From Candidatus Tenderia sp. (GTDB lineage: Bacteria > Pseudomonadota > Gammaproteobacteria > Tenderiales > Tenderiaceae), in NCBI GenBank assembly GCA_031416075.1, contig JANOSY010000070.1, forward strand, positions 1 to 11,717: a DNA stretch of 11,717 nt. Reading direction: 5' to 3'. A model generated the notes under the pieces. The model saw only the letters and a list, made by a program, of their open reading frames with translations. It searched no databases and was not told the origin of the DNA. Shown here piece by piece: positions 1 through 11,717 of the stretch. Position 1 is the stretch's first letter. Each line of letters starts with the position of its first letter. The position numbers and the translations under genes are program-made.

Positions 1-114
1 AAGATTATGGAATTCATTGAGGTCCACAATACCGATCCAAAACCCTTTGTGTGGACAAAAACAACTGAAGCGATTTTAGAGAAAATCGGGCGTGCTAAGG
101 CTGCCTTGGTATGA
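1..114 (+). CDS. IS630-family transposase, C-terminal fragment (5' part outside window)
   Basis: Frame 1 reads KIMEFIEVHNTDPKPFVWTKTTEAILEKIGRAKAALV* (TGA 112-114). The HN..PKPFVWTK...IL.K tail is characteristic of IS630 transposases. Not in the ORF track. Confidence 0.85.
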   Translation, partial: KIMEFIEVHNTDPKPFVWTKTTEAILEKIGRAKAALV

Positions 115-140
115 GTATATTATTTGTTACGGTACACTAG
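1..140 (+). mobile_element. IS630-family insertion sequence, right end
   Basis: The transposase stop is followed by TATTTGTTACGGTACACTAG (121-140). Ending in ..ACAC-TA-G fits an IS630 terminal repeat plus TA/CTAG target. The left IR is outside the window, so the pairing is not verified. Confidence 0.7.
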
Positions 141-358
141 AATCACCTGAAAATCAAGCATGGCCTAGGTTTCAGCCTATGAAAGTCCGACTGTTTTCTA
201 TGCTGACGCTGAAAACAAATCAACGCTGATTGACAGCGTGCGGATAAAAACATCAATGAATTGCTAAACAACCCAACGGTACATTCCACCGCTTGCATCT
301 GAGTGGCATCGATAAGGATGCCTACGGGTGATTGGATTCACTATGAACCAAAAGGAGA

Positions 359-3300
359 GTGATCATCATTAGCACATTAAAATTTTGGACTCGCGCACGA
401 AACGGGATGGCTAACGAGTGGGACTCTGAGGTGTTACGTTCGGAGCTGCTTAGTATTGAGCAGCTGAAGCGCCACGCGGTAACGCTGGCCGGGCAGCATC
501 GCATCGATCCACATAAAGGGCCAGATCGGCTATTGCCACGTCTGGCAGATAATGAGCGTGTTCTGCTGGCGGCCCATGATCTGGTGACACTCTCCGTAAC
601 CGTGGGGCAACGGATAGTCTCGGCCGAAGCGTGGTTGCTGGATAATTTTTACATCATTGAACAGCAGACCGGTTTGGTGCGCCGCCATCTGCCACGCGGT
701 TACAGTCGGCAATTGCCGCGCTTGGCGGGGGGGCCGCTGGCCGGTTTTCCGCGCATCTATGAGCTGGCCCTGGAGTTGATCTCTCACATGGATGGTCGCG
801 TCGACAACGACAACGCCACCCACTTTATCGCCGCTTACCAGACGGTTGCGCCATTAAAACTAGGCGAGTTGTGGGCATTTCCGATCATGCTGCAATTGGC
901 GCTGTTGGAAAACTTGCGTCGCGTTGCTGTGCGCATCGCTCGTCGGCGCGAGGAGCGCGACGCGGCTATCCGCTGGGCCGAGCGTATGCTGGCGACCGCC
1001 GAAACAGCGCCTAAGCGGCTGGTTCAGTTGCTGGCTGAGTTTGCCAATGCCGATGTGCCGCTGACCGCATCTTTTGTCGAGGAGTTTTATACCCGACTTC
1101 AGGCGCAAGGGTCGGCATTGGCATTCATTCAAACCTGGGTCGAGCAAAAACTGTTGGCGCAGGGGGTGACGGCGGCGCAGTTGTCGGAGGTGGCTGCCCG
1201 AACCCTCGCGGCCAATCAGATCTCCATTGCCAACAGCATCGGCAGTCTGCGTTTCATTGGTGCGATGGATTGGCAAAGTTACGTCGAGTCGCTCAGTGTT
1301 GTTGAGCAGATATTAGGCGAAGACCCGGCAGACATGCATAAGTACCAGGATTTTGCGACCCGCGACCGTTACCGGCATGTCATCGAGGATGTGGCAAGGA
1401 GATGTGTGCATAGTGAGTCAGACGTGGCGCGCGAAGCCATTGTGTTGGCGCGGGCGGAAGCAATACGCTCAGGCATCGATGATCGCCGTGCCCATGTGGG
1501 TTACTACCTGATCAATCACGGAAGAGAGCAGTTGGAACAGGTGGTCGGCGCCCGTTTGTCATGGCGGGTGCGTGCCAAACGGCGCTGTCAGCACGCCCGT
1601 CTGTTCCTTTACCTTGGTCCCATTCTGTTGCTTACGCTGGTGTCGACATGGGCGGCGCTCTCTTATGCCGGGCTTGCACCGGGTGACTGGCGTTACTGGT
1701 TTTTTGCCTTCACCGGCCTCATCGGTGTTTCGGCGCTGGCCCTGCCTTTAGTAAATCTTTTGGTCACGCTCGTGTTACCACCACGCACCTTGCCGCGGCT
1801 GGATTTTCCCCAGGGTATTCCGCTGACTCACCGCACCATGGTGGTGGTTCCGACCATGCTAAGTAAGCCGCAAGATGTAGACGATTTGCTCGAAGCATTG
1901 GAGATCCGTTATCTCGGTAACCGTGATCCCAATCTGTTTTTTGCTTTGTTGACTGATTTTTATGATGCGTCTGAGCGCACGCTGCCGGGTAATGAGGCTC
2001 TGCTTGCTCATGCACGGACCGCGCTGCAAACACTTAACGAGACCTACCGTGGGGATCGTTCATGCATCTTCTATCTGTTTCATCGGTCGCGACTGTGGAA
2101 TCCCATTGAACAGGTGTGGATGGGCTATGAACGCAAACGCGGCAAACTGGAGCAGTTCAATGCCTTGTTGCGGGGCGAGGCGACCACGGCATTTTCGGAG
2201 ATCGTCGGTGATACCTCCATCCTTGCGTCAATCAAATACGTTATTACCCTGGATACCGACACGCAACTGCCGCGTGAAACGGCGCACAAACTCATTGGTA
2301 ATATCGCCCACCCGCTCAATCGACCGCTGTATGACGCCGACAAGGGCCGTATCGTCGAGGGTTACGCCATCCTGCAGCCGCGTACGTCCGCTAGCTTGAT
2401 CAGTGCCGGTCGTTCACGTTTTAGCAAACTGTACGCCGGGGATTCGGGCATAGATCCCTATACGCGTGAAGTGTCGGATGTCTATCAGGATATCTTTGGC
2501 GAGGGATCGTTCATCGGCAAGGGCATCTATGATGTGGATGCCTTTCGTCAGGTGCTTGATGGTCGCTTGCCGGAAAACCTTATCCTCAGTCACGACCTGC
2601 TGGAAGGCGGCTACGCCCGTTCGGCCCTGGTGAGTGACGTAGAACTGATTGAGGAGCAACCGGCCAGTTATGTCACGGAGGCGAGTCGACGCCATCGCTG
2701 GATACGAGGTGATTGGCAGCTGGCCGGTTGGTTGTTACCGAGCGTGCCCGGACCGGATTGTTTGCCGGAGAGTTTGAATGACTCCACCGAATCACAAGAT
2801 AAAACCAGCGCAATAACATCAACCTCACAACGGCAACCAAACCCGCTCAGCGGCTTGTCGCGTTGGAAAATTTTCGACAACCTTCGCCGTAGCCTGGTGT
2901 CGCCTATGTTGTTTGTTTTGCTGGTCGGTGGCTGGTTGTTGGCGCCGGAATCGGCTTGGTTTTGGATCTTATTGGTTTTGGGGATTATGTTCCTGCCGGT
3001 TTTGCTGTCCAGCCTCATCGAGCTGACCCTGAAGCCGAAAGAGCGTGATTGGCAGGTACATCTGGTTTTGACCGGGAAATCTGCGAGTCGGCCGATAACG
3101 CTCGCCTTGCTGGGGTTGGTGTTTTTACCCTACGAGGCGTTGATTTGTTTGAGTGCAATGCTGCACTCAGGTGTGCGCATGCTGTTCACGCGCCGCAGGT
3201 TATTGCTCTGGCAACTGCGATCTTATGCAAACCGGAATGGGCGGAGTAGCTTGGCCGATTTTTTCAAGGAGATGTGGGTCGGACCGAGCGTGGCGTTGGT

Positions 3301-6300
3301 GTTGGGTGCTTCAGTGAGCGGTGAGACCTTGCTCTTCTGTGCACCGGTGTTGTTGCTCTGGCTGGTGTCGCCAGTGGTTGGTTGGTGGATCAGTACACCA
3401 ATAAGTCCGCCGCTACCGGCATTGAGTCTTGAACAACGAGCCTTCCTGCGCATCTCGGCCCGGCGCACCTGGCGCTTCTTCGCCGATTTTGTCGGTCCGC
3501 AGGAGAACTGGCTGCCACCCGATAACTTCCAGGAGTATCCCGCGACGGCCATCGCCTCACGCACCTCGCCCACCAACATCGGCATGGCCCTGTTGGCGGA
3601 TCTGGCAGCCTACGATTTTGGCTATATCGGCTGTGGTGAATTGTTGCAACGCGTCGAGAATACCCTGACCACCATGGAGAAGCTGGAGCGCTACCACGGT
3701 CATCTATTCAACTGGTACGACACACGCTCTCTGGCCCCTCTACAACCACAGTATGTCTCATCGGTGGATAGCGGTAATCTGGTCGGCAGCCTGCTCACCC
3801 TGCAAGCGGGACTGGCCGAGTTGAAACAACGACCGGTGTTGTCGGTCAATGCATTTCAGGGGTTGGCAGACACCCTGCAGGTGCTCGTTGAGCATGTGCC
3901 CACATCACCTGCCCCTGACCTTGCCAGGAAGGTCAGGTCTTTGCAGGAGAGACTTCAGGCAATGATCGCGACCGACCCGCCACAGACGCTGGCAGCGGCT
4001 AATCAGTTGTTGAATGAGCTTCACGATAGTGGTGGCGGGTTAGTGGCATGGTTACCGGCGGATACCTATATCGATGGTGAACTCTATTACTGGGCACAGG
4101 CCTTTGAGCAGCAATCCCGCACGCTTCAGGAAGAGCTTCTAAGCCTGGTTGCTGAACCACGGCACTTCAGCCATATACCAACACTGGTGGAACTGGCCGA
4201 AGAGCGCGCCGTATCGTCAACGGCGGCAGAGCGCTTGCGAGTGATCGATACGTTGGTGGATCGATGCCATCAGCTGGCGGAGATGGATTTTGATTTTCTC
4301 TACGACCGGTCGCGTGATCTACTGAGCATCGGTTACGACATGGGTGAACGGCGTCGCGATCCCTCCTGTTATGACCTGCTGGCCTCCGAGGCGCGTCTGG
4401 CCAGTTTTCTGCTTATCGCTCAGGGCAAGCTACCGCAGAAGCATTGGTTTTCACTCGGCCGTCTGTTGACTAGCCATGGTGGCGACGTGAGCCTGATTTC
4501 GTGGAGTGGCTCGATGTTTGAGTACCTGATGCCGAGCCTGATCATGCCCAGTTACGACAACACCCTACTGCAGCAGACCTGTAAGGCGGCGGTGTCGCGC
4601 CAGATCGAATATGGCAGACAGCGCGCCGTGCCCTGGGGGATTTCTGAATCCTGTTATCACGCCACCGATATGCAGCGGGTCTATCAATACCGGGCATTTG
4701 GTGTACCTGGTTTGGGTTTTAAACGCGGCCTGGGTGATGACCTGGTGATCGCCCCCTATGCTAGCGCACTGGCATTGACGGTGATGCCGCAGGAAGCGTG
4801 CAGCAACATGCAACGACTCGCGACCGAGGGGTTTGTGGGCGACTATGGATTCTATGAAGCGGTGGATTACACCCCCTCACGTGTGCCGCGAGGTAAAAAT
4901 TACGCCATTGTGCGCAGCTTCATGGCACATCATCAGGGCATGAGCCTGCTGGCCTTTACGCATGTGTTGCACGCTCAACCGATGCAACGCCGGTTTATGG
5001 CTAATCCCCTGGTGCGGGCGACGGAATTGTTGCTACAGGAGCGTATCCCGAAGAAGGGCGCGACGCTGCACCCACATGCGGCCGAGGTGAGTGCTGCGGC
5101 ACGTCCCCCGGCCGTGGAAGAGGGAGGGGTTATGAGCGTGTTTACCGATCCCGCTATGCGTATCCCCGAAGTGCACCTGTTGTCCAACGGCCGCTACCAC
5201 GTCATGGCGACCCATGCCGGTGGTGGCTACAGTCGGCGGGGTGATTTGGCAGTCACCCGTTGGCGTGAAGATGTCACTTGCGATAGTTTTGGTACCTTCA
5301 TCTATCTGCGTGATCGTGATACGGGCCGTTATTGGTCCAGCGCCTATCAACCGACGCTGCGCAAGGCCGAACATTACGAGGCAATCTTTGTGCAGGGGCG
5401 GGCGGAGTACCGGCGTCGCGACGAGGCAATAGAGGCGCATACCGAGATCAGCGTGTCGCCCGAAGACGATGTGGAGATTCGTCGCGTTACGCTCACCAAT
5501 CAGTCCTCACACAGCCGAAACATTGAGGTGACCACGTACGCCGAGGTGGTGCTGGCGCCGTTGAGTGCCGACCTGGCCCATCGTGCGTTTAGTAACCTGT
5601 TTGTGCAGACAGAGATCCTGCCCGAGCAGCAGGCGATTCTCTGCACCCGTCGACCACGTACTCCGGGCGAACAGGTGCCGTGGATGTTTCATCTGTTCGC
5701 CGCCCCTGGCGTGAACAGCAGCGAACCCTCCTACGAAACCGATCGCGCCAGGTTCATCGGTCGCGGTCGTACGGCGGCCAACCCGTTGGCGCTGGATGGC
5801 GGGGATGGCTTGTCGAACAGCGCCGGACCGGTGCTCGATCCTATCGTCGCGATTCGCCGCACACTCAGCTTGTCAGCCGATGAAACGGCCACCGTGCAGA
5901 TCATCTCCGGTGTTGCCGATAGCCGCGAGGCCGCCTTGGCGGTACTCGAAAAATATTGTGACCGCCACTTCGTTGAGCGCGCCTTTGAAATGGCCTGGTT
6001 CCAGAGTCAGGAGGTGTTGCACCACCTCAACGTTGGCGAAGCGGATGCGCAGGTCTATGGCCGTCTCGCCACCTCGGTGATTCACGGTAACGCCCTGCGT
6101 CGTGCCGCGCCCGGCATCATCGCCCGCAATCAGTTGGGGCAGTCCGGGCTGTGGCGTTTTGGTGTTTCAGGTGATCTGCCCATTATCTTTATCAGCATCG
6201 GCGATCTGAAGCGCATCGAGCTGGTAAAGCAGGTGCTGCAAGCGCATGCCTATTGGCGCATGAAGGGGGTGGCGTCGGATCTGGTGATCGTGAACGAGGA

Positions 6301-9001
6301 TTTTTCCGGTTACCGGGCTGTATTGCAAGACCAAATTATGGGGTTGATCAATGGCGGCCCCGAAGCGCATTTTATCGACAAGCCGGGCGGGGTCTTTGTA
6401 CGCCGTGCCGAAGAGCTTTCCGAGGATGAGCGTGTGCTGTTCCAGAGCGTGGCTCGCATCGCGTTCCGTGATAACGCCGAGACATTGATCGAGCAGGTGG
6501 AGCGTCGTGTCTCGTCCCGGCGGCCATCGGACCTGTTGGAGCCGGTGCGAAAACCCTCAGCAGAACCGATCCAGCCACTGTTGGCGCGTGAACGCATTTT
6601 CTGTAATGGACTGGGCGGCTTTACCCCCGATGGGCGTGAATATGTGATTACGCTAGAGCCGGGACAGACCACACCGGCACCGTGGGCCAATGTCATCGCC
6701 AGCCCGCATATCGGCACCGTTGTCAGTGAGAGCGGCAGTGCCTATACCTGGGTGGAAAATGCCCACGAGTTCCGACTGACCACCTGGCACAATGACCCAC
6801 TGAGTGACAGCAGCGGCGAGGCGCTTTATATCCGTGACGAGGAGAGTGGTGAGTTCTGGTCGCCGACACCCTTACCTGCGCGCGGCAAATCCGGCTATAC
6901 CTGTCGACACGGTTTTGGCTACAGCGTCTTTGAGCACTATCAGTCTGGTATAGCTTCGGAGCTGTTCATCTACGTCGCCATGGATGCCCCGGTGAAGTTC
7001 GCCGTGGTCAAGCTGCGCAACCATTCGAGACGTGCGCGGCACTTATCATTGACCGGCTACTGGGAGTTGGTGCTCGGTGAGTGGCGCCACGCCAATCTGA
7101 TGCACATCATGACCGAAACGGACACACACAGCGGGGCGCTGTTTGCCCGCAATAGCTACGGCCGTGAATGTGCGAATCGGGTTGTGTTTGCCCAGGTAAG
7201 CGATGCCCATATCAGCCTGACGGGGCGCACACTGAGTGGTAACCGCACCGAGTTCATTGGTCGTAACGGTTCACTGGCCAAGCCAGCGGCAATGCGCCGC
7301 AAACGCTTGTCGGGCAAGACCGGCGCGGGACTTGACCCTTGCGCCGCGATACAGACTCAGATTGAGCTGGCCGAAGGTGAAGAGTGCGAGGTGGTGTTTG
7401 TGTTTGGCGCAGCCGGCAGTAGTGACGAAGCGCGTCATCTCATCCAGCGGTTCGGTGGGCCAGCCGGTGCGCGCCAGGCGCTGGAGGCGGTGTGGGAATA
7501 CTGGAACCACACCTTGGGTGCAATCAATGTGGAGACGCCTGATCCTGCATTGGACATCATGACCAACGGTTGGCTGGTCTATCAGACACTCTCCTGCCGC
7601 TATTGGGCCCGCAGTGGCTACTATCAGTCCGGCGGTGCCTATGGTTTTCGCGATCAGTTGCAAGATACCATGGCGCTGATCCATGCGACCCCATGGCTGG
7701 CACGCGAGCAGTTAGTCCGTTGCGCCGGGCATCAGTTTCACGAGGGGGACGTGCAACACTGGTGGCATCCACCACACGGCCAGGGCGTACGCACCCATTT
7801 CTCTGACGACTATCTATGGCTGCCCTATGCAACCTGTCGTTATGTGCTGACAACTGGCGACACGGGTGTGCTTGATGAGCAGATCAATTTCCTCGAAGGG
7901 CGCGAATTGAACGCCGAAGAGGAGGCTTACTACGACCAACCGCAACGCTCCAATGACACGGCAAGTCTCTATGAACATTGCGTACTTGCCATCAAACATG
8001 GACTGCGTTTTGGTGAACATCAGCTGCCGTTAATTGGTTGCGGTGACTGGAACGACGGCATGAATCTCATCGGCCGGGAGGGCAAGGGTGAGAGCGTTTG
8101 GCTGGCGTGGTTCCTCTACGAAAATCTACAACAGTTCGCCGACCTGGCACTTAGCCGCGACGATGAAACCTTTGCCGATGTGTGCACCGAACAGGCCGCA
8201 CAGCTACGCAAAAACATCGAGGCCAACGCCTGGGATGGCGACTGGTATCGGCGCGCCTATTTCGATGACGGCACCCCCTTGGGCTCGGCGCAAAATGACG
8301 AATGCCAAATCGATTCGATCAGCCAGAGTTGGGCGGTGATCTCCGGCGGCGGCGATAGCAAGCGCGCCCAGCAGGCGATGGCAGCGGTAGACAAACGTCT
8401 GGTACGACGCGACGCCCAGCTGATTCAACTGCTCGATCCACCTTTTGATAAGTCGCCACTCGAGCCTGGCTATATCAAAGGCTACATCCCAGGCGTACGT
8501 GAAAACGGCGGCCAATATACCCACGCCGCCATCTGGACCACCATGGCGTTTGCCATGATGGGCGAGCGCGAGCGCAGCTGGGAGCTGTTCGCCATGCTTA
8601 ATCCCATTAATCACGGCAGCACGGCTGAGCAGATAGAACACTACAAGGTCGAACCCTACGTCATGTGCGCGGATATCTATGCTGCAGCGCCGCATACCCG
8701 CCGCGGCGGCTGGAGCTGGTACACCGGAGCAGCGGGATGGATGTACCGACTAACCGTGGAAACGCTATTGGGCCTACAGCTCGAAGTAGACCAGCTACGC
8801 ATCACGCCGTGTATCCCAGAGGATTGGTCGTCGTACAAAATCCACTACCGCTATCGCGAGACCGTCCACCACATCACCGTAAAACGCGCAGCTGAAGGGG
8901 CCGGGCGTGTGACGCTCGATGGCGTGGTGCAGAAAGCGCTTAATGTGATTCCGCTGGTTGATGATCGCCGTGAGCATTACGTGGAGGTGGAATTGCCTTA
9001 A
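359..9001 (+). CDS. ndvB: Cyclic beta-1,2-glucan synthase (Cgs/NdvB/ChvB family): GT84 glycosyltransferase, cyclase (glucoamylase-like/GH189) and C-terminal GH94 phosphorylase
   Basis: Uninterrupted 2880-aa ORF. GT motifs: WMGYERKRGKL, YVITLDTDTQLP, EGSFIGKGIYDVDAF, LSHDLLEG, RRHRWIRGDWQ, flanked by hydrophobic TM segments. Middle domain: PPDNFQE, RTSPTNIG, YVSSVDSGNL, YDLLASEARL, SWSGSMFEYLMP, PWGISES, FMAHHQGM. Two GH94 beta-sandwich modules (HLLSNGRY; PAPWANVIA), then catalytic motifs YYQSGGAYGFRDQLQD, GDWNDGMN, GESVWL, RENGGQYTHAA. The start is uncertain (GTG 359 vs ATG 407). Confidence 0.95.
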   Translation: MIIISTLKFWTRARNGMANEWDSEVLRSELLSIEQLKRHAVTLAGQHRIDPHKGPDRLLPRLADNERVLLAAHDLVTLSVTVGQRIVSAEAWLLDNFYIIEQQTGLVRRHLPRGYSRQLPRLAGGPLAGFPRIYELALELISHMDGRVDNDNATHFIAAYQTVAPLKLGELWAFPIMLQLALLENLRRVAVRIARRREERDAAIRWAERMLATAETAPKRLVQLLAEFANADVPLTASFVEEFYTRLQAQGSALAFIQTWVEQKLLAQGVTAAQLSEVAARTLAANQISIANSIGSLRFIGAMDWQSYVESLSVVEQILGEDPADMHKYQDFATRDRYRHVIEDVARRCVHSESDVAREAIVLARAEAIRSGIDDRRAHVGYYLINHGREQLEQVVGARLSWRVRAKRRCQHARLFLYLGPILLLTLVSTWAALSYAGLAPGDWRYWFFAFTGLIGVSALALPLVNLLVTLVLPPRTLPRLDFPQGIPLTHRTMVVVPTMLSKPQDVDDLLEALEIRYLGNRDPNLFFALLTDFYDASERTLPGNEALLAHARTALQTLNETYRGDRSCIFYLFHRSRLWNPIEQVWMGYERKRGKLEQFNALLRGEATTAFSEIVGDTSILASIKYVITLDTDTQLPRETAHKLIGNIAHPLNRPLYDADKGRIVEGYAILQPRTSASLISAGRSRFSKLYAGDSGIDPYTREVSDVYQDIFGEGSFIGKGIYDVDAFRQVLDGRLPENLILSHDLLEGGYARSALVSDVELIEEQPASYVTEASRRHRWIRGDWQLAGWLLPSVPGPDCLPESLNDSTESQDKTSAITSTSQRQPNPLSGLSRWKIFDNLRRSLVSPMLFVLLVGGWLLAPESAWFWILLVLGIMFLPVLLSSLIELTLKPKERDWQVHLVLTGKSASRPITLALLGLVFLPYEALICLSAMLHSGVRMLFTRRRLLLWQLRSYANRNGRSSLADFFKEMWVGPSVALVLGASVSGETLLFCAPVLLLWLVSPVVGWWISTPISPPLPALSLEQRAFLRISARRTWRFFADFVGPQENWLPPDNFQEYPATAIASRTSPTNIGMALLADLAAYDFGYIGCGELLQRVENTLTTMEKLERYHGHLFNWYDTRSLAPLQPQYVSSVDSGNLVGSLLTLQAGLAELKQRPVLSVNAFQGLADTLQVLVEHVPTSPAPDLARKVRSLQERLQAMIATDPPQTLAAANQLLNELHDSGGGLVAWLPADTYIDGELYYWAQAFEQQSRTLQEELLSLVAEPRHFSHIPTLVELAEERAVSSTAAERLRVIDTLVDRCHQLAEMDFDFLYDRSRDLLSIGYDMGERRRDPSCYDLLASEARLASFLLIAQGKLPQKHWFSLGRLLTSHGGDVSLISWSGSMFEYLMPSLIMPSYDNTLLQQTCKAAVSRQIEYGRQRAVPWGISESCYHATDMQRVYQYRAFGVPGLGFKRGLGDDLVIAPYASALALTVMPQEACSNMQRLATEGFVGDYGFYEAVDYTPSRVPRGKNYAIVRSFMAHHQGMSLLAFTHVLHAQPMQRRFMANPLVRATELLLQERIPKKGATLHPHAAEVSAAARPPAVEEGGVMSVFTDPAMRIPEVHLLSNGRYHVMATHAGGGYSRRGDLAVTRWREDVTCDSFGTFIYLRDRDTGRYWSSAYQPTLRKAEHYEAIFVQGRAEYRRRDEAIEAHTEISVSPEDDVEIRRVTLTNQSSHSRNIEVTTYAEVVLAPLSADLAHRAFSNLFVQTEILPEQQAILCTRRPRTPGEQVPWMFHLFAAPGVNSSEPSYETDRARFIGRGRTAANPLALDGGDGLSNSAGPVLDPIVAIRRTLSLSADETATVQIISGVADSREAALAVLEKYCDRHFVERAFEMAWFQSQEVLHHLNVGEADAQVYGRLATSVIHGNALRRAAPGIIARNQLGQSGLWRFGVSGDLPIIFISIGDLKRIELVKQVLQAHAYWRMKGVASDLVIVNEDFSGYRAVLQDQIMGLINGGPEAHFIDKPGGVFVRRAEELSEDERVLFQSVARIAFRDNAETLIEQVERRVSSRRPSDLLEPVRKPSAEPIQPLLARERIFCNGLGGFTPDGREYVITLEPGQTTPAPWANVIASPHIGTVVSESGSAYTWVENAHEFRLTTWHNDPLSDSSGEALYIRDEESGEFWSPTPLPARGKSGYTCRHGFGYSVFEHYQSGIASELFIYVAMDAPVKFAVVKLRNHSRRARHLSLTGYWELVLGEWRHANLMHIMTETDTHSGALFARNSYGRECANRVVFAQVSDAHISLTGRTLSGNRTEFIGRNGSLAKPAAMRRKRLSGKTGAGLDPCAAIQTQIELAEGEECEVVFVFGAAGSSDEARHLIQRFGGPAGARQALEAVWEYWNHTLGAINVETPDPALDIMTNGWLVYQTLSCRYWARSGYYQSGGAYGFRDQLQDTMALIHATPWLAREQLVRCAGHQFHEGDVQHWWHPPHGQGVRTHFSDDYLWLPYATCRYVLTTGDTGVLDEQINFLEGRELNAEEEAYYDQPQRSNDTASLYEHCVLAIKHGLRFGEHQLPLIGCGDWNDGMNLIGREGKGESVWLAWFLYENLQQFADLALSRDDETFADVCTEQAAQLRKNIEANAWDGDWYRRAYFDDGTPLGSAQNDECQIDSISQSWAVISGGGDSKRAQQAMAAVDKRLVRRDAQLIQLLDPPFDKSPLEPGYIKGYIPGVRENGGQYTHAAIWTTMAFAMMGERERSWELFAMLNPINHGSTAEQIEHYKVEPYVMCADIYAAAPHTRRGGWSWYTGAAGWMYRLTVETLLGLQLEVDQLRITPCIPEDWSSYKIHYRYRETVHHITVKRAAEGAGRVTLDGVVQKALNVIPLVDDRREHYVEVELP

Positions 9002-9109
9002 GGAAGTCGCGGATTCAAGTCTGAAGTGCAACTTTGATTAACGGCGACTAAGGGAGGTGAGATGCGGTAGCATCCCTGCCCCTTTAATCGCCAAATTGAA
9101 GTTGCAGAG

Positions 9110-9338
9110 ATGAACTACACGCACATCACCGAAGAGGAAAGATACCAGAGAGCCTGCCCCGCGAAGCGCTTTGGGCATTTATGAGCTTCGCCACTAGGGC
9201 TTTAAGCTGGAAGCGATAAGCATGGTACTTGAGCGAGACAAGTCCACTATCAGCCGGGAGCTAAAGCGCAACAAAAGCGCGCGTGGCTATCGCCCCAGGC
9301 AAGCCCAGGAGAAGTCCGAGGCGCGAGCGCGTAATTAA
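9110..9338 (+). pseudogene. IS30-family transposase pseudogene (N-terminal HTH only)
   Basis: With 9149-9176 removed it reads MNYTHITEEERYQ-IYELRH*GFKLEAISMVLERDKSTISRELKRNKSARGYRPRQAQEKSEARARN*. The STISRELKRN..GYRP..AQ motif is typical of IS30. Lesions: a 28-bp frameshifting insert, an in-frame TAG at 9195-9197 and truncation at about 9338. Confidence 0.88.
9149..9176. repeat. 28-bp REP-like imperfect palindrome inserted in the IS30 transposase
   Basis: AGAGCCT-GCCC-C-GCG-AAG-CGC-TTT-GGGC. Exact removal restores the expected ..ERYQIY.. reading frame. Confidence 0.6.
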
Positions 9339-9596
9339 GTGAGGTAAACCCCCGGCTCTGCCGGGGGACTCACAAAGGTTTGACCTATGCGGCGGTCGTG
9401 ATTTTTTAGCACGCCGATGTAATGAAGTTTTGAGTCACCTTTCAAGGGAGGTTTCTCATAATAAACACAAACTATTTGGGGGAGCGGTGCTCTTCTTTTT
9501 CATTCTGACGGTAGCTGAAAGCATGAAGACATCTCAGCTCTTGAGCGCCTTTGAGGCGCTGGATCAAGCCCCCGGCTCTGCCGGGTGTATTTGACT
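9339..9596. mobile_element. Non-autonomous IS200/IS605-type hairpin element (PATE/MITE-like, no tnpA)
   Basis: The hairpin CCCCCGGC-TCT-GCCGGG(G/T)G occurs twice as a direct repeat (9349-9367, 9569-9587), each followed by TTTGAC (9379-9384, 9590-9595). A further hairpin AGCGCCT-TTG-AGGCGCT lies at 9544-9560. This resembles IS200-type ends, but the interior is too short for a transposase. Boundaries are approximate. Confidence 0.72.
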
Positions 9597-9636
9597 CTAT
9601 GGGCACGTAAACGCCCAGCTGGCTTTATTATTTTTA

Positions 9637-9689
9637 GGCTAACAAAGCTAAGCGGCGGCGCAGCCGTCCGCTTGAGCGCCGGGTTAGGC
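9637..9689 (-). other. Integron attC site of the RDD cassette
   Basis: Minus strand: R'' GCCTAAC - CCGGC - L'' GCTCAAGC - GGACGGC TGC GCCGCC - L' GCTTAGC - TTT - R' GTTAGCC. It starts 9 nt after the stop codon and has the two expected extrahelical bases (extra C in L'', extra A in the inner stem). The L'-R' spacer is only 3 nt. Confidence 0.88.
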
Positions 9690-10448
9690 TTGGCACTACT
9701 ACTTTGTCCTCGAAATGTTGATTGAACAATAGATGATTACACCACACCAGAACGCCGCCCCGAGGTAGTATTGGTTTGCCAAGGTGCCACTCATGACTTG
9801 AGGAAGGAATAGGAACAGCAGCATGAATGCCCCGACTCCTATGCCGACGTAGTTCCATACGCTCGGCTTCTTGGCAAAAGGCTCTGCTCTCTGAAGCGTA
9901 GCGGAATACTCCGCAGTCGACGGCAACGAAACTGTTGATTGTGGAGTGCTTACCTTCGCCAGATCGCGCATGCGGATAACGTAGGTGTTTGCAACCATAT
10001 CCCCGATCCGCTGCTTCCGTTGTGAAAAAAAGGCCACAATACCTGCCGGAATGCCTCCTGCTACCAGTGGATTTACTTCAACAAGTCTGAATAGTGTTCG
10101 AACGAATATTTGGCCAAGGCTAGGTCGATTACCTTTCTCATTGACCACAATTGTCCCGGTGAGCAGTTTGCCGAGTGTTCTACCCCACAGCCATTCCGTG
10201 ACGACAAAATATGACAACGCCAAAACTAACCAGATGAACAGCGTCTTACGGTAAAGCTCATTGCCGAGAAGCCAATCTGGAATTAGCAGACATGAAACCG
10301 AGACAACCATGTCGACCCAACACCCAAGCCACCGATTCACAATGATGGATTTTCCGTAGTGCTCTGCGATACCGCGCACAGAACTCCGCTCCGGTTCAAT
10401 AACGCTTGTTTCTTCTGGCACAGTTCCTCCTTGGGATTAATAGGCTAA
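9643..10448 (-). mobile_element. Integron gene cassette carrying an RDD-family gene
   Basis: Bounded by G/TTAGCC crossover sites at 10449/10448 and 9643/9642. It holds a single ORF with only an RBS upstream and an attC directly downstream. No intI is present in the window. Confidence 0.85.
9699..10421 (-). CDS. RDD-family membrane protein with C-terminal two-helix extension
   Basis: 240 aa. GTG start with AAGGAGG RBS (10426-10432). RDD motifs: R(WLGCWV)D, YF..E..WGRTLGK.LTG..VV, R.LFR, QRIGDMVANTYV. A S/T/P-rich linker and two hydrophobic segments follow. Confidence 0.88.
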   Translation of the reverse strand: MPEETSVIEPERSSVRGIAEHYGKSIIVNRWLGCWVDMVVSVSCLLIPDWLLGNELYRKTLFIWLVLALSYFVVTEWLWGRTLGKLLTGTIVVNEKGNRPSLGQIFVRTLFRLVEVNPLVAGGIPAGIVAFFSQRKQRIGDMVANTYVIRMRDLAKVSTPQSTVSLPSTAEYSATLQRAEPFAKKPSVWNYVGIGVGAFMLLFLFLPQVMSGTLANQYYLGAAFWCGVIIYCSINISRTK

Positions 10449-10460
10449 CGTAAAGTTGAG
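10443..10460 (-). other. Distal part of an attC site split by IS110 (part of L', spacer, R')
   Basis: Minus strand CT-CAAC-TTTAC-GTTAGCC. Joining to 11717-11712 (GCCCCT) through the shared CT gives GC-CCTCAAC-TTTAC-GTTAGCC preceded by a further C-run, i.e. an L' box, 5-nt spacer and R' core just upstream of the next cassette gene. Confidence 0.8.
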
Positions 10461-10473
10461 ATACCGTCTTGCC

Positions 10474-10479
10474 TGTCAA
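10474..10479 (-). promoter_or_regulatory. -35 box (TTGACA) of the IS110 circle-junction promoter
   Basis: Perfect TTGACA overlapping the transposase TGA stop. On circularisation it sits exactly 17 bp from TATCTT in the left end. Confidence 0.8.
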
Positions 10480-11456
10480 GCATGATTTTCTGACAAAGAG
10501 GGATCGAAAGGTCTGCCGGATTTCAGTACACCGTAAACTATATGTATCAATTTACGCATCACCGCACCAATAATCACCATATTTGGTTTGCCTGCTTTCT
10601 TCAAACGATCAGCAAATTCCTTGATCACTGGATTATAGCGCCGTGCCACAATGGCGGGCATATACAGCGCTCTTCTTAATAGCGAGTTTCCTTTCTTGGA
10701 TAAGTGTGGCTTACCCCGCACCGAACTTCCAGATTGATGCACCGTGGGATTAAGTCCAACAAACGCGGCCAGTGCCTTGGCATGCTCGAATCGTTGTACA
10801 TCCCCAATAAACGCCAAGAGTCGGGCAATGGTCGCTTTTCCAATGCCTGGAATACTCTCCAGTAGACCCGATTGGTCTTTCAAATCGGAATGACGGTCAA
10901 TATGACCATGGATTAACGCTTCTACGCTTTTGATTTCTGCCTTGATGGTGGCTAATACTGTCGCAATAGAGGGACGAATCACAGCGGTAGCTGTATCCAT
11001 GCGATTTTGTTCCTGCCCTTCTATCTGAACGAGCGAGGACAAGCGTTGAACCAGCGCCTGTAGTTCACGCACATGCAGTGGCGGCGGTGTCCAGTGGCCT
11101 GGACACACCTTCTGATAAAACTCTGCAATCAGCTTAGCATCGGCTTTGTCGGTCTTGGCGCGCTTCAACTGCGCACCGCTAAAACTCTTAATCTGTGCGG
11201 GATTGACCACGCTCACAATAAAACCCTGATCATAAAGATAGGTCGCCAGCGCATCACCATAACAACCCGTCGCCTCCATGCAAGCAGCCACGGTGGTGAA
11301 GCCTTGTTTCAACAACCAGTTCGACAGTGCTTTAAATCCATCAGGCGTATTTTCGAACACATGAGTCTTCTTAATTTTACCTGCAACCATCAATGCTACA
11401 TCAAACTTCGCCTTGGAAATATCAATTCCCAGAATGCCGTTGTGTAAGTCCGTCAT
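10476..11456 (-). CDS. IS110-family DEDD transposase / bridge recombinase (326 aa)
   Basis: RuvC-like DEDD residues in GID, MEATG and KTDKAD; also VVNP, IPGIG, GLNP and the QSGSS catalytic-serine motif. ATG 11456 has an AAGGA RBS (11464-11468) and is preferred over the ORF-track start at 11513. Confidence 0.95.
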   Translation of the reverse strand: MTDLHNGILGIDISKAKFDVALMVAGKIKKTHVFENTPDGFKALSNWLLKQGFTTVAACMEATGCYGDALATYLYDQGFIVSVVNPAQIKSFSGAQLKRAKTDKADAKLIAEFYQKVCPGHWTPPPLHVRELQALVQRLSSLVQIEGQEQNRMDTATAVIRPSIATVLATIKAEIKSVEALIHGHIDRHSDLKDQSGLLESIPGIGKATIARLLAFIGDVQRFEHAKALAAFVGLNPTVHQSGSSVRGKPHLSKKGNSLLRRALYMPAIVARRYNPVIKEFADRLKKAGKPNMVIIGAVMRKLIHIVYGVLKSGRPFDPSLSENHA

Positions 11457-11516
11457 ATTATTATCCTTGCACACAAACCAAAAAAAGCACTCCATGCGGA
11501 AGTAACACCCCAATTC

Positions 11517-11700
11517 AGATCAACCTTGTGAATGCAGGATCATGATAAAAATCAGTCCTAAGATACCGTCCGATCTTAATGAATATAGGTGGGGGAAGGG
11601 CACCAATCTCAACTACAGGCTCAATGGCCTTGGGGCACGCCCGGCATCCCTTCTCCCTGCTCTTTCGCGTAAGAGCAATTTAGCTCATTTCTGAGCTGAA
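11517..11700 (-). ncRNA. IS110 bridge RNA (5' hairpins, target-binding loop, donor-binding loop)
   Basis: Hairpins at 11682-11697 and 11658-11677. Target loop 11591-11657 carries guides CGTGCCCC (11639-11632) and AGTTGAG (11614-11608) around inner stem AGGC/GCCT. Donor loop 11517-11576 carries GACGGTATCT (11570-11561) and ACAAG (11529-11525). All four guides match flank or element-end sequence in this window. Transcript ends are approximate. Confidence 0.88.
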
Positions 11701-11703
11701 GGT

Positions 11704-11709
11704 AAGATA
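11704..11709 (-). promoter_or_regulatory. -10 box (TATCTT) of the IS110 circle-junction promoter
   Basis: TAnnnT hexamer 2 nt inside the left end and directly upstream of the bridge RNA. Confidence 0.7.
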
Positions 11710-11711
11710 CA

Positions 11712-11717
11712 AGGGGC
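11712..11717 (-). other. Proximal stub of the attC site split by IS110
   Basis: Minus strand GCCCCT matches the left target guide (GCCCC) and supplies the CT core. The rest of the site is outside the window. Confidence 0.65.

Follow-up and report, generated by a model that had tools for sequence, protein, structure and literature searches.

Which kind of mobile element has split a cassette recombination site (attC) at the end of a contig from Candidatus Tenderia sp., and by what means would it have recognised that site? The DNA in question (contig JANOSY010000070.1 of assembly GCA_031416075.1, positions 1 to 11,717; this whole stretch of 11,717 nucleotides (nt) is called the window below) is contig C70 of a 95-contig genome, and at the window's end its minus strand reads, in order, GCCC, CT, an insertion sequence, CAACTTTAC and GTTAGCC (10458-10443). 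A first-pass annotation, made from the letters and their open reading frames (ORFs), took the insertion sequence for a bridge recombinase resembling IS621 that is naturally programmed to enter integron attC sites. The analysis reported here leads to much the same account: an IS621-like element with a two-domain bridge RNA, programmed for the L' arm of attC and belonging to a clade of guide variants, is very probably what the locus contains.

An insertion sequence within an integron attC site

The element and the two parts of the site that it interrupts occupy the following positions.

10459-11711, minus strand: complete insertion sequence, 1253 bp including the right CT copy (10460-10459); aligns end to end with relatives that have the same termini
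10476-11456, minus strand: transposase/recombinase gene, 326 amino acids (aa), intact; Pfam DEDD_Tnp_IS110 (1.9e-26) and Transposase_20 (2.8e-28), IS621 E value 2e-76
11712-11717, minus strand: end of the 5' part of the interrupted attC, 6 bases with the left CT copy at 11713-11712; the remainder of this attC half is on contig C26
10443-10458, minus strand: 3' part of the interrupted attC, comprising the rest of the L' box and spacer CAACTTTAC, then R' GTTAGCC (10449-10443); read directly, with the same arm in intact attC on contigs C58 and C74

The ends at 10459 and 11711 were fixed independently, by at least eight full-length relatives that align end to end with exactly the same termini, and 100%-identical element ends are present at two further contig ends of the same genome. 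The right end finishes GGTATCT, and a CT core stands on both sides of the element; the right end GTATCT and the left end TGTAT are presumably like the donor sequence of IS621. Inverted matches between the two 40-nt ends reach at most 4 nt, and shuffles usually give 4-6 nt, so that the element has no subterminal inverted repeat beyond chance level. Its non-coding ends measure 255 nt upstream of the transposase and 17 nt downstream, the upstream end being the longer, as in the IS110 group. The protein carries both domains of the IS110 family above their cut-offs (PF01548, 93.1 bits; PF02371, 98.6 bits), and among solved structures it matches only IS621 and ISCro4 (PDB 9t56, 259 bits), both collinearly over residues 8-320; in the IS621 transposase (PDB 8wt6_A, 260 bits) the alignment spans residues 9-321, with an identity of about 48% as read by eye rather than computed by a tool, and with conserved G-IDxxK, EATG, KTDxxDA and SGSS stretches. 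The length of 326 aa falls within the 315-330 aa class described for transposases of the IS492/IS621/Piv cluster (PMC11187229, section 6). The IS621 layout proposed in the first-pass annotation, with an upstream RNA and a CT core, is borne out by the unequal ends, the CT and the 260-bit match. By its sequence features, 10459-11711 is an intact IS110-group insertion sequence of the IS621-like branch, with reading frame, both guide loops and both ends preserved, and it has probably been mobile recently.

Removal of 10459-11711 leaves, as had been claimed, an L'-spacer-R' arm before a cassette gene, and uninterrupted attC on C58 and C74 of the same genome carry this target with a single CT. The element interrupts the site 9 nt ahead of GTTAGCC, the R' core of an RDD-family cassette, and lies in sense orientation to the cassettes. 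The missing half of the site was recovered from C26, whose first 141 bases equal window positions 11577-11717 exactly and include the last 135 bases of the element's left end: beyond this overlap follow a GC-rich stem, an L''-like box and R'' GCATAAC, and further along two small ORFs without a Pfam match, an attI-like region and the start of an integron integrase. Hence both the L''/R'' boxes and the further cassette that had been forecast beyond 11717 are found on C26; the three bases at 11718-11720 turned out to be GCG instead of the forecast ACG. The site is identified as attC by this R''-L'' half, by the folding of empty sites described below, and by neighbouring attC at 9689-9637 and on C74. 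In a contig of one run, possibly that of the source sample, the left flank is a different one, again attC-like, and departs from the known sequence at the last base of the window (loose end 11716), which would explain why the contig stops at the window end.

A second copy is indicated by C74: its first 135 bases belong to the right end of the element, and behind them come a further attC arm (CAACTCTAC, GTTAGGC), a GIY-YIG/NUMOD3 cassette and an intact attC. The cassette gene beside this copy (C74, 174-902, plus strand) encodes a homing-endonuclease-like protein.

The integrase on C26 (1199-1324, plus strand) is a remnant of the first 41-45 codons, matching TIGR02249 positions 1-39 and Phage_int_SAM_4 and abutting an unrelated gene. 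No intact integron integrase was found in the whole genome, where the best TIGR02249 match reaches 86.7 bits against a cut-off of 265, and a complete integron, with an intact integrase beside attI and an array, is not present. To judge from the assembly, the integron here is chromosomal and decayed, with its array dispersed over contig ends. As Tetu and Holmes reportedly noted in 2008, another group of attC-inserting elements, the IS1111-attC group, is also associated with decayed chromosomal integrons.

A predicted bridge RNA with guides for both flanks and both ends

The long upstream end of the element folds into a scaffold with two guide-bearing loops, whose parts are as follows.

11658-11697, minus strand: two small hairpins 5' of the guide domains (11697-11682 and 11677-11658); RNAalifold, helices 1 and 2 100% paired, one compensatory pair
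11591-11657, minus strand: predicted target-binding domain with outer stem, internal loop and inner hairpin; helix 3 99.6% paired, pair 62/117 CG (10) or AU (8)
11632-11640, minus strand: putative left target guide GCGUGCCCC, sense of the left flank through the first core base
11608-11614, minus strand: putative right target guide AGUUGAG, reverse complement of the core and first five right-flank bases, 7/7
11509-11589, minus strand: predicted donor-binding domain; helices 5-7, three compensatory pairs in the inner hairpin
11561-11570, minus strand: putative left donor guide GACGGUAUCU, same letters as the final 10 bases of the right end, CT included; invariant among relatives
11525-11529, minus strand: putative right donor guide, core-proximal part ACAAG, reverse complement of CT and the first three left-end bases; invariant columns, on the 3' side of the donor loop

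The fold was derived with RNAalifold from 20 left ends, and pairs were then counted on a curated structure, in which 97.1% of paired cells can pair, as against 32-44% when partners are slid along the alignment; double changes occur in seven of its pairs, a level reached in 7 of 500 shuffles. The target-binding domain has an internal loop that surrounds a small hairpin; the left guide occupies the loop's 5' side, the right guide its 3' side. The stretches that the first-pass annotation had picked out in this loop, CGTGCCCC at 11639-11632 and AGTTGAG at 11614-11608, are indeed located there, and the second pairs with the right flank at all seven positions as claimed. Against the flank on C26 the left guide matches at 8/9 positions, or at 9/9 with one G-U wobble, the wobble arising because 11718-11720 is GCG.

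Structure and guide matches together predict an RNA of the bridge type, with two loops, left guides in the sense of their targets, right guides complementary to them, and the core read by both. For the IS621 bridge RNA, bottom-strand pairing on the left is described for the left guide and top-strand pairing on the right for the right guide, each of them taking in the core (PMC11208160); for the IS110 type, section 12 of PMC11187229 places the bottom-strand match 5' of the top-strand match in the RNA. The arrangement of the predicted RNA is the one described for IS621 and the order reported for IS110-type seekRNA. A heptamer in the left end, TTAAGAT, was considered as right donor guide and rejected: it forms part of a stem in the consensus fold, in which the 3' side of the loop holds the right donor guide.

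With a covariance model of the clade of close relatives (below), 48 of 52 sources gave a full-length scaffold match immediately upstream of the transposase, among them relatives at 32-50% protein identity; in these hits the scaffold and donor loop are conserved and the letters of the target loop differ. There was no match in the locus of ISPa21 and IS4321, in two loci truncated in the left end by the start of their contig, or in locus L086. A permissive Rfam scan of 9000-11717 returned no bridge-RNA family and one chance-level hit (STnc490, E value 0.97).

Guides of the relatives vary with the sites they occupy

In a protein search, the best 120 clusters have 71-100% identity to the element, are nearly all metagenomic and are named at most 'IS110 family transposase'. 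Contig scans for relatives yielded 36 genome and 65 metagenome loci, from which 27 left and 35 right junctions were read for elements of at least 67% protein identity, the window and the host's C74 included. All junctions read have the same termini and a CT on each side. The expectation that other copies would also lie in attC sites is largely confirmed: among right flanks of at least 16 nt, GTT[AGT] starts 7-11 nt after the core in 28/34, and among left flanks of at least 60 nt, YAAC followed by an L''-like box occurs 35-70 nt upstream in 21/25, the exceptions being L042, L052, L056 and L057. (A test for perfect stems, which scored 2/25 on the left flanks, was discarded in favour of this motif test.) On the right, the flanks of L036, L042, L056 and L057 are unlike attC, L040 has GTTC at the place of R', and L051 has GTTC slightly shifted. 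The bottom strands of six computed empty sites fold as an attC hairpin in which the R and L boxes are paired and a terminal stem is present. A crude genome-wide attC finder based on regular expressions gave 224 mostly false hits and was not used.

The right target guide occurs in seven versions. Where both guide and right flank could be read (24 loci), it matches at 7/7 positions in 21, at 6/7 in two (L050, L055) and at 5/7 in one (L042, not an attC site). Its five non-core bases match their own flank at a mean of 4.83 of 5 positions compared with 3.62 for shuffled pairings, and since none of 20000 shuffled pairings reaches the observed value, the match exceeds chance; when a single flank is taken for each guide class, 2 of 5040 permutations reach the observed score. 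The left target guide is less variable and less strict: counting the wobble, it matches at 9/9 positions in 14 of 27 loci, at 7/9 in six and at 5/9 in seven, and in L046 and L057 it changes together with its flank.

A quick maximum-likelihood tree of 59 rows, from which the broken-frame rows L009, L024, L095 and L099 were dropped, places the window in a 22-row clade (Shimodaira-Hasegawa-like approximate likelihood-ratio support 99) inside 57 IS621-like rows, with two IS1111 references across a long branch of support 100. All 18 attC-sited rows fall in that one clade. Outside it, the picture changes: at 32-50% protein identity, relatives have the RNA scaffold and donor ends in common with the element but occupy sites other than attC, in part resembling repetitive extragenic palindromic (REP) sequences; REP-like palindromes directly adjoin several enterobacterial relatives. 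In ten further relatives from outside the clade the right flank contains no attC arm, a GTT at the right distance in L011 being taken as chance.

Within the host's order the element is found in one of 17 genomes, the host itself, and in a sample of 400 genomes of the class in two, the host and G072, the latter with a distant relative that matches in the donor domain only. There, two 99%-identical copies (L117 and L118) with the same donor ends lie at a CT on the 3' side of a REP-like hairpin (GTTGGGCT...AGCCCAAC). The target-loop letters of G072 match its own flank, which is this hairpin and not an attC.

In L005, a long-read assembly, two clade copies lie 2.8 kb apart (2243-3498 and from 5060) in the same orientation, at two attC sites of one array, a geometry that would allow deletion of the intervening cassettes. 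Decayed relatives also exist: L057 (610-1811), at a non-attC site, lacks about 50 nt covering the donor-binding loop, and L009 (213-1466) has a disrupted transposase frame. In the public runs X3-X5, across 11475-11717, the summed contig depth of the left-end region is about ten times that of the transposase body or more where covered, with many variant letters; contig depth is a poor measure, and the excess suggests many diverged clade members with a conserved left end in sediment metagenomes.

Alternative explanations

One alternative is that the element belongs to the described IS1111-attC group (ISPa21, ISPst6, ISKpn4, ISPa25) and represents nothing new. Insertion of an IS110-family element in attC is that group's known trait (PMC11187229, PMC3001079, and likewise PMC11616780 and PMC11089894), and the likeness extends to DEDD transposases of the IS110 superfamily, an RNA guide, site- and orientation-specificity within attC, and the occupation of one array by several copies. 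As a reference we used ISPa21, taken as the IS110-family gene between smr and qacEdelta1 on plasmid pME-1a, whose array reads ...smr-ISPa21-qacEdelta1 (PMC7232449), together with IS4321 of the same plasmid. The element's protein has 24% identity to either; the alignment to ISPa21 is gapped and partial (pairwise E value 4e-9), and ISPa21 itself scores only 36 bits against IS621, compared with 260 for the element. The 100-support branch in the tree separates the two IS1111 references from the element, and the covariance model finds nothing at the ISPa21 locus. The anatomy differs as well. In the IS1111-attC group the guide RNA lies downstream of the transposase and subterminal repeats (7-17 bp; 13 bp in ISPa21) are present, whereas in the element the RNA lies upstream and there are no such repeats. 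IS1111-attC elements insert near the 5' (R''/L'') end of attC and antisense to the cassettes (PMC3001079), and the ISPa21 copy, with its long non-coding part downstream, indeed sits antisense in the 5' end of the smr attC, a few bases past R''; the element lies in sense at the 3' end, 9 nt before R'. The claim that the protein falls outside the described group is thereby upheld for ISPa21 and IS4321, the references compared, and membership of that group is extremely improbable. On their own strands, ISPa21 and the element both have an R-box-like GTTAG a few bases past the right end, and, judged from the one ISPa21 copy, their positions on the two arms of the attC palindrome seem to be mirror images of one another.

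The association with attC might instead be incidental, the clade reading a GC-rich hairpin with CT as its REP-targeting relatives do, and this motif merely being present in the attC of these hosts. Relatives with the same donor ends beside REP-like hairpins, a left target formed by the 3' arm of the terminal stem of attC, and the three occurrences of the 11-mer target outside attC in the host genome would all fit; those three are unoccupied. Yet an R' core that the guides do not read stands at a fixed distance in 28/34 right flanks, each of the seven right-guide variants matches a different L' box, as expected from selection to stay on attC, and 18 of 18 attC-sited rows group in a single well-supported clade, which makes incidental association quite unlikely. 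It is also unlikely, if marginally less so, that the window copy is a fixed, immobile relic or its junction an artefact of metagenome assembly. The 95-contig assembly does break at the element, the host integron retains only a 45-codon intI remnant, decayed relatives exist (the broken frame of L009, the lost donor loop of L057), and no joints appear in the contigs of public runs. Against this stand the intact frame, guide loops and ends, at least two insertion sites with 100% identical ends in one assembly, a 622-nt contig without differences in runs of another study, and contig overlaps that are exact over 141 bases.

The attC-programmed, IS621-like account, which we prefer, rests on anatomy, homology, target identity, and guide-flank and structural covariation, and several observations weigh against it. 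Four to six insertion sites are not recognisable as attC (L036, L042, L056 and L057; L051 and L052 partially), which also favours an incidental association. Where the left guide matches at only 5/9 positions, in seven of 27 loci, recognition would rest mostly on the right guide and GCCCC. The loci are in part non-independent, with L004, L005, L005b and L006 from one genome, L007 and L041 identical in protein, and L021 and L087 identical in flanks. IS621 itself stands outside both the tree and the RNA comparison, and attC identity was judged from motifs and folding rather than by the covariance model of IntegronFinder. A simple scan found no sigma-70-like site inside the integrated copy, no RNA run containing the stretch was listed among public runs, and the contigs of four such runs, uninformative on expression or mobility, contained no joints.

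A proposed mechanism and its evolution

In the account that we favour, the upstream non-coding end would encode a two-domain bridge RNA, one internal loop carrying the two target guides and the second loop the guides for the element's joined ends, ACGGTAT-CT-TGT. The DEDD/serine recombinase would exchange strands at the CT core, which would account for a single orientation of insertion with CT on both sides. The programmed target would be the point in attC at which the GC-rich terminal stem meets the L' box, 9 nt before the R' core. Insertion would part R''/L'' from L'/R', so that the attC could no longer fold and neighbouring cassettes would be fused. Circle formation, in turn, may create a promoter across the joined ends, one half of which is the following feature.

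10474-10479, minus strand: TTGACA, -35-like hexamer of the right end, overlapping the stop codon; a circle would bring it to 17 nt from TATCTT (11709-11704)

The resulting promoter-like site, TTGACA-17-TATCTT (10 of 12), is present in 24 of 24 computed circle junctions and in none of 34 integrated joints of right end and flank; junction promoters are known for the IS110 family (PMC11187229, section 12).

Across the clade, the right guides (at least 22 sampled elements) would have diversified in step with the L' boxes of the attC they occupy. The independent retargeting to integrons proposed earlier gains support from the use of the opposite attC end, the opposite orientation and an RNA upstream rather than downstream of the transposase, and because IS1111-attC elements differ in these three respects, it is the simplest reading. 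A fuller scenario, which we offer tentatively as a possibility, is that attC parasitism arose a second time, independently, in the IS110 superfamily: the scaffold and donor domain of REP-targeting ancestors would have been kept, only the target loop reprogrammed, and the right guide then diversified with the L' boxes of the hosts. As the element lies in sense orientation in the array, read-through from a cassette promoter could supply both bridge RNA and transposase, and, if so, would tie the activity of the element to expression of the array.

Relation to known systems and significance

The element shares with IS621 and ISCro4 full-length transposase homology, a long upstream non-coding end and a CT core, and with IS621 a two-domain RNA in which each loop has its left guide 5' and its right guide 3', with the core read by both (PMC11208160). 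It differs in its natural target, an integron attC arm as opposed to the REP sequences of E. coli (PMC3184786), and in a right target guide of seven bases including the core, where the analysis of IS621 gives a nine-base left and a four-base right guide (PMC11208160). ISEc21, for which seekRNA has been shown experimentally and whose relative ISMch6 was redirected naturally by few guide changes, likewise has an upstream non-coding region, a bottom-strand match 5' of the top-strand match and a circle-junction promoter (PMC11187229, section 12); unlike the element, it uses a linear site inside IS3-family transposase genes and belongs to a cluster of 345-385 aa (PMC11187229, section 6). Group IIC-attC introns are also mobile and specialised on attC (PMC3001079), but are retroelements with a different mechanism.

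The bridge-RNA mechanism and attC-targeting insertion sequences as a phenomenon are already known; what is new is the combination, an IS621-like clade whose guides are programmed for the L' arm of attC and form a natural series of variants. No earlier description of attC targeting by IS110-group or IS621-like elements was found in the literature searched, which yielded work on the IS1111-attC group and unrelated papers, ISfinder and supplements lying outside the search; both mentions of attC in the bridge RNA paper (PMC11208160) stand in its reference list, and a 2026 review makes no mention of it. It is possible that clade members are already included in Supplementary Data 2 of PMC11208160 and in the target logos of PMC11187229.

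The clade constitutes a natural reprogramming series, in which one scaffold and one donor are combined with at least seven right-guide variants, each beside its matching target, and thereby complements the laboratory reprogramming of IS621 and ISEc21. It also implies that attC has been colonised at least twice by RNA-guided elements of the IS110 superfamily, the two lineages lying on opposite arms and in opposite orientations. By splitting attC, and with several places per array open to them (as in L005), such elements may bear on the freezing or rearrangement of chromosomal cassette arrays. Transposases of the clade in cassette arrays are currently labelled only 'IS110 family', and the IS1111-attC label would not fit them. 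The findings introduce no new principle and are of relevance to specialists on bridge recombinases and on integrons.

Neighbouring features of the window

Downstream of the element the array ends with a single cassette.

9699-10421, minus strand: cassette gene for an RDD-family membrane protein, 240 aa, in the same direction as the transposase; Pfam RDD 1.3e-13
9637-9689, minus strand: the RDD cassette's own attC, R'' GCCTAAC to R' GTTAGCC; read directly

A ribosome-binding site lies between the attC arm GTTAGCC and the RDD gene, which is a true cassette, since it is followed by an attC of its own. The 600 bases between this last attC and the next large ORF hold no clear gene; in them a GC-rich hairpin, CCCGGCAGAGCCGGGGG, resembling REP or terminator repeats, occurs twice 3' of the RDD attC (about 9585-9565 and 9365-9345, minus strand). 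The ORF itself (359-9001, plus strand; 2880 aa) converges on the end of the cassette array and contains GH94 supersandwich and catalytic domains, a glucoamylase-like domain and a weak GT2 match; its putative product looks like a cyclic beta-1,2-glucan synthase.

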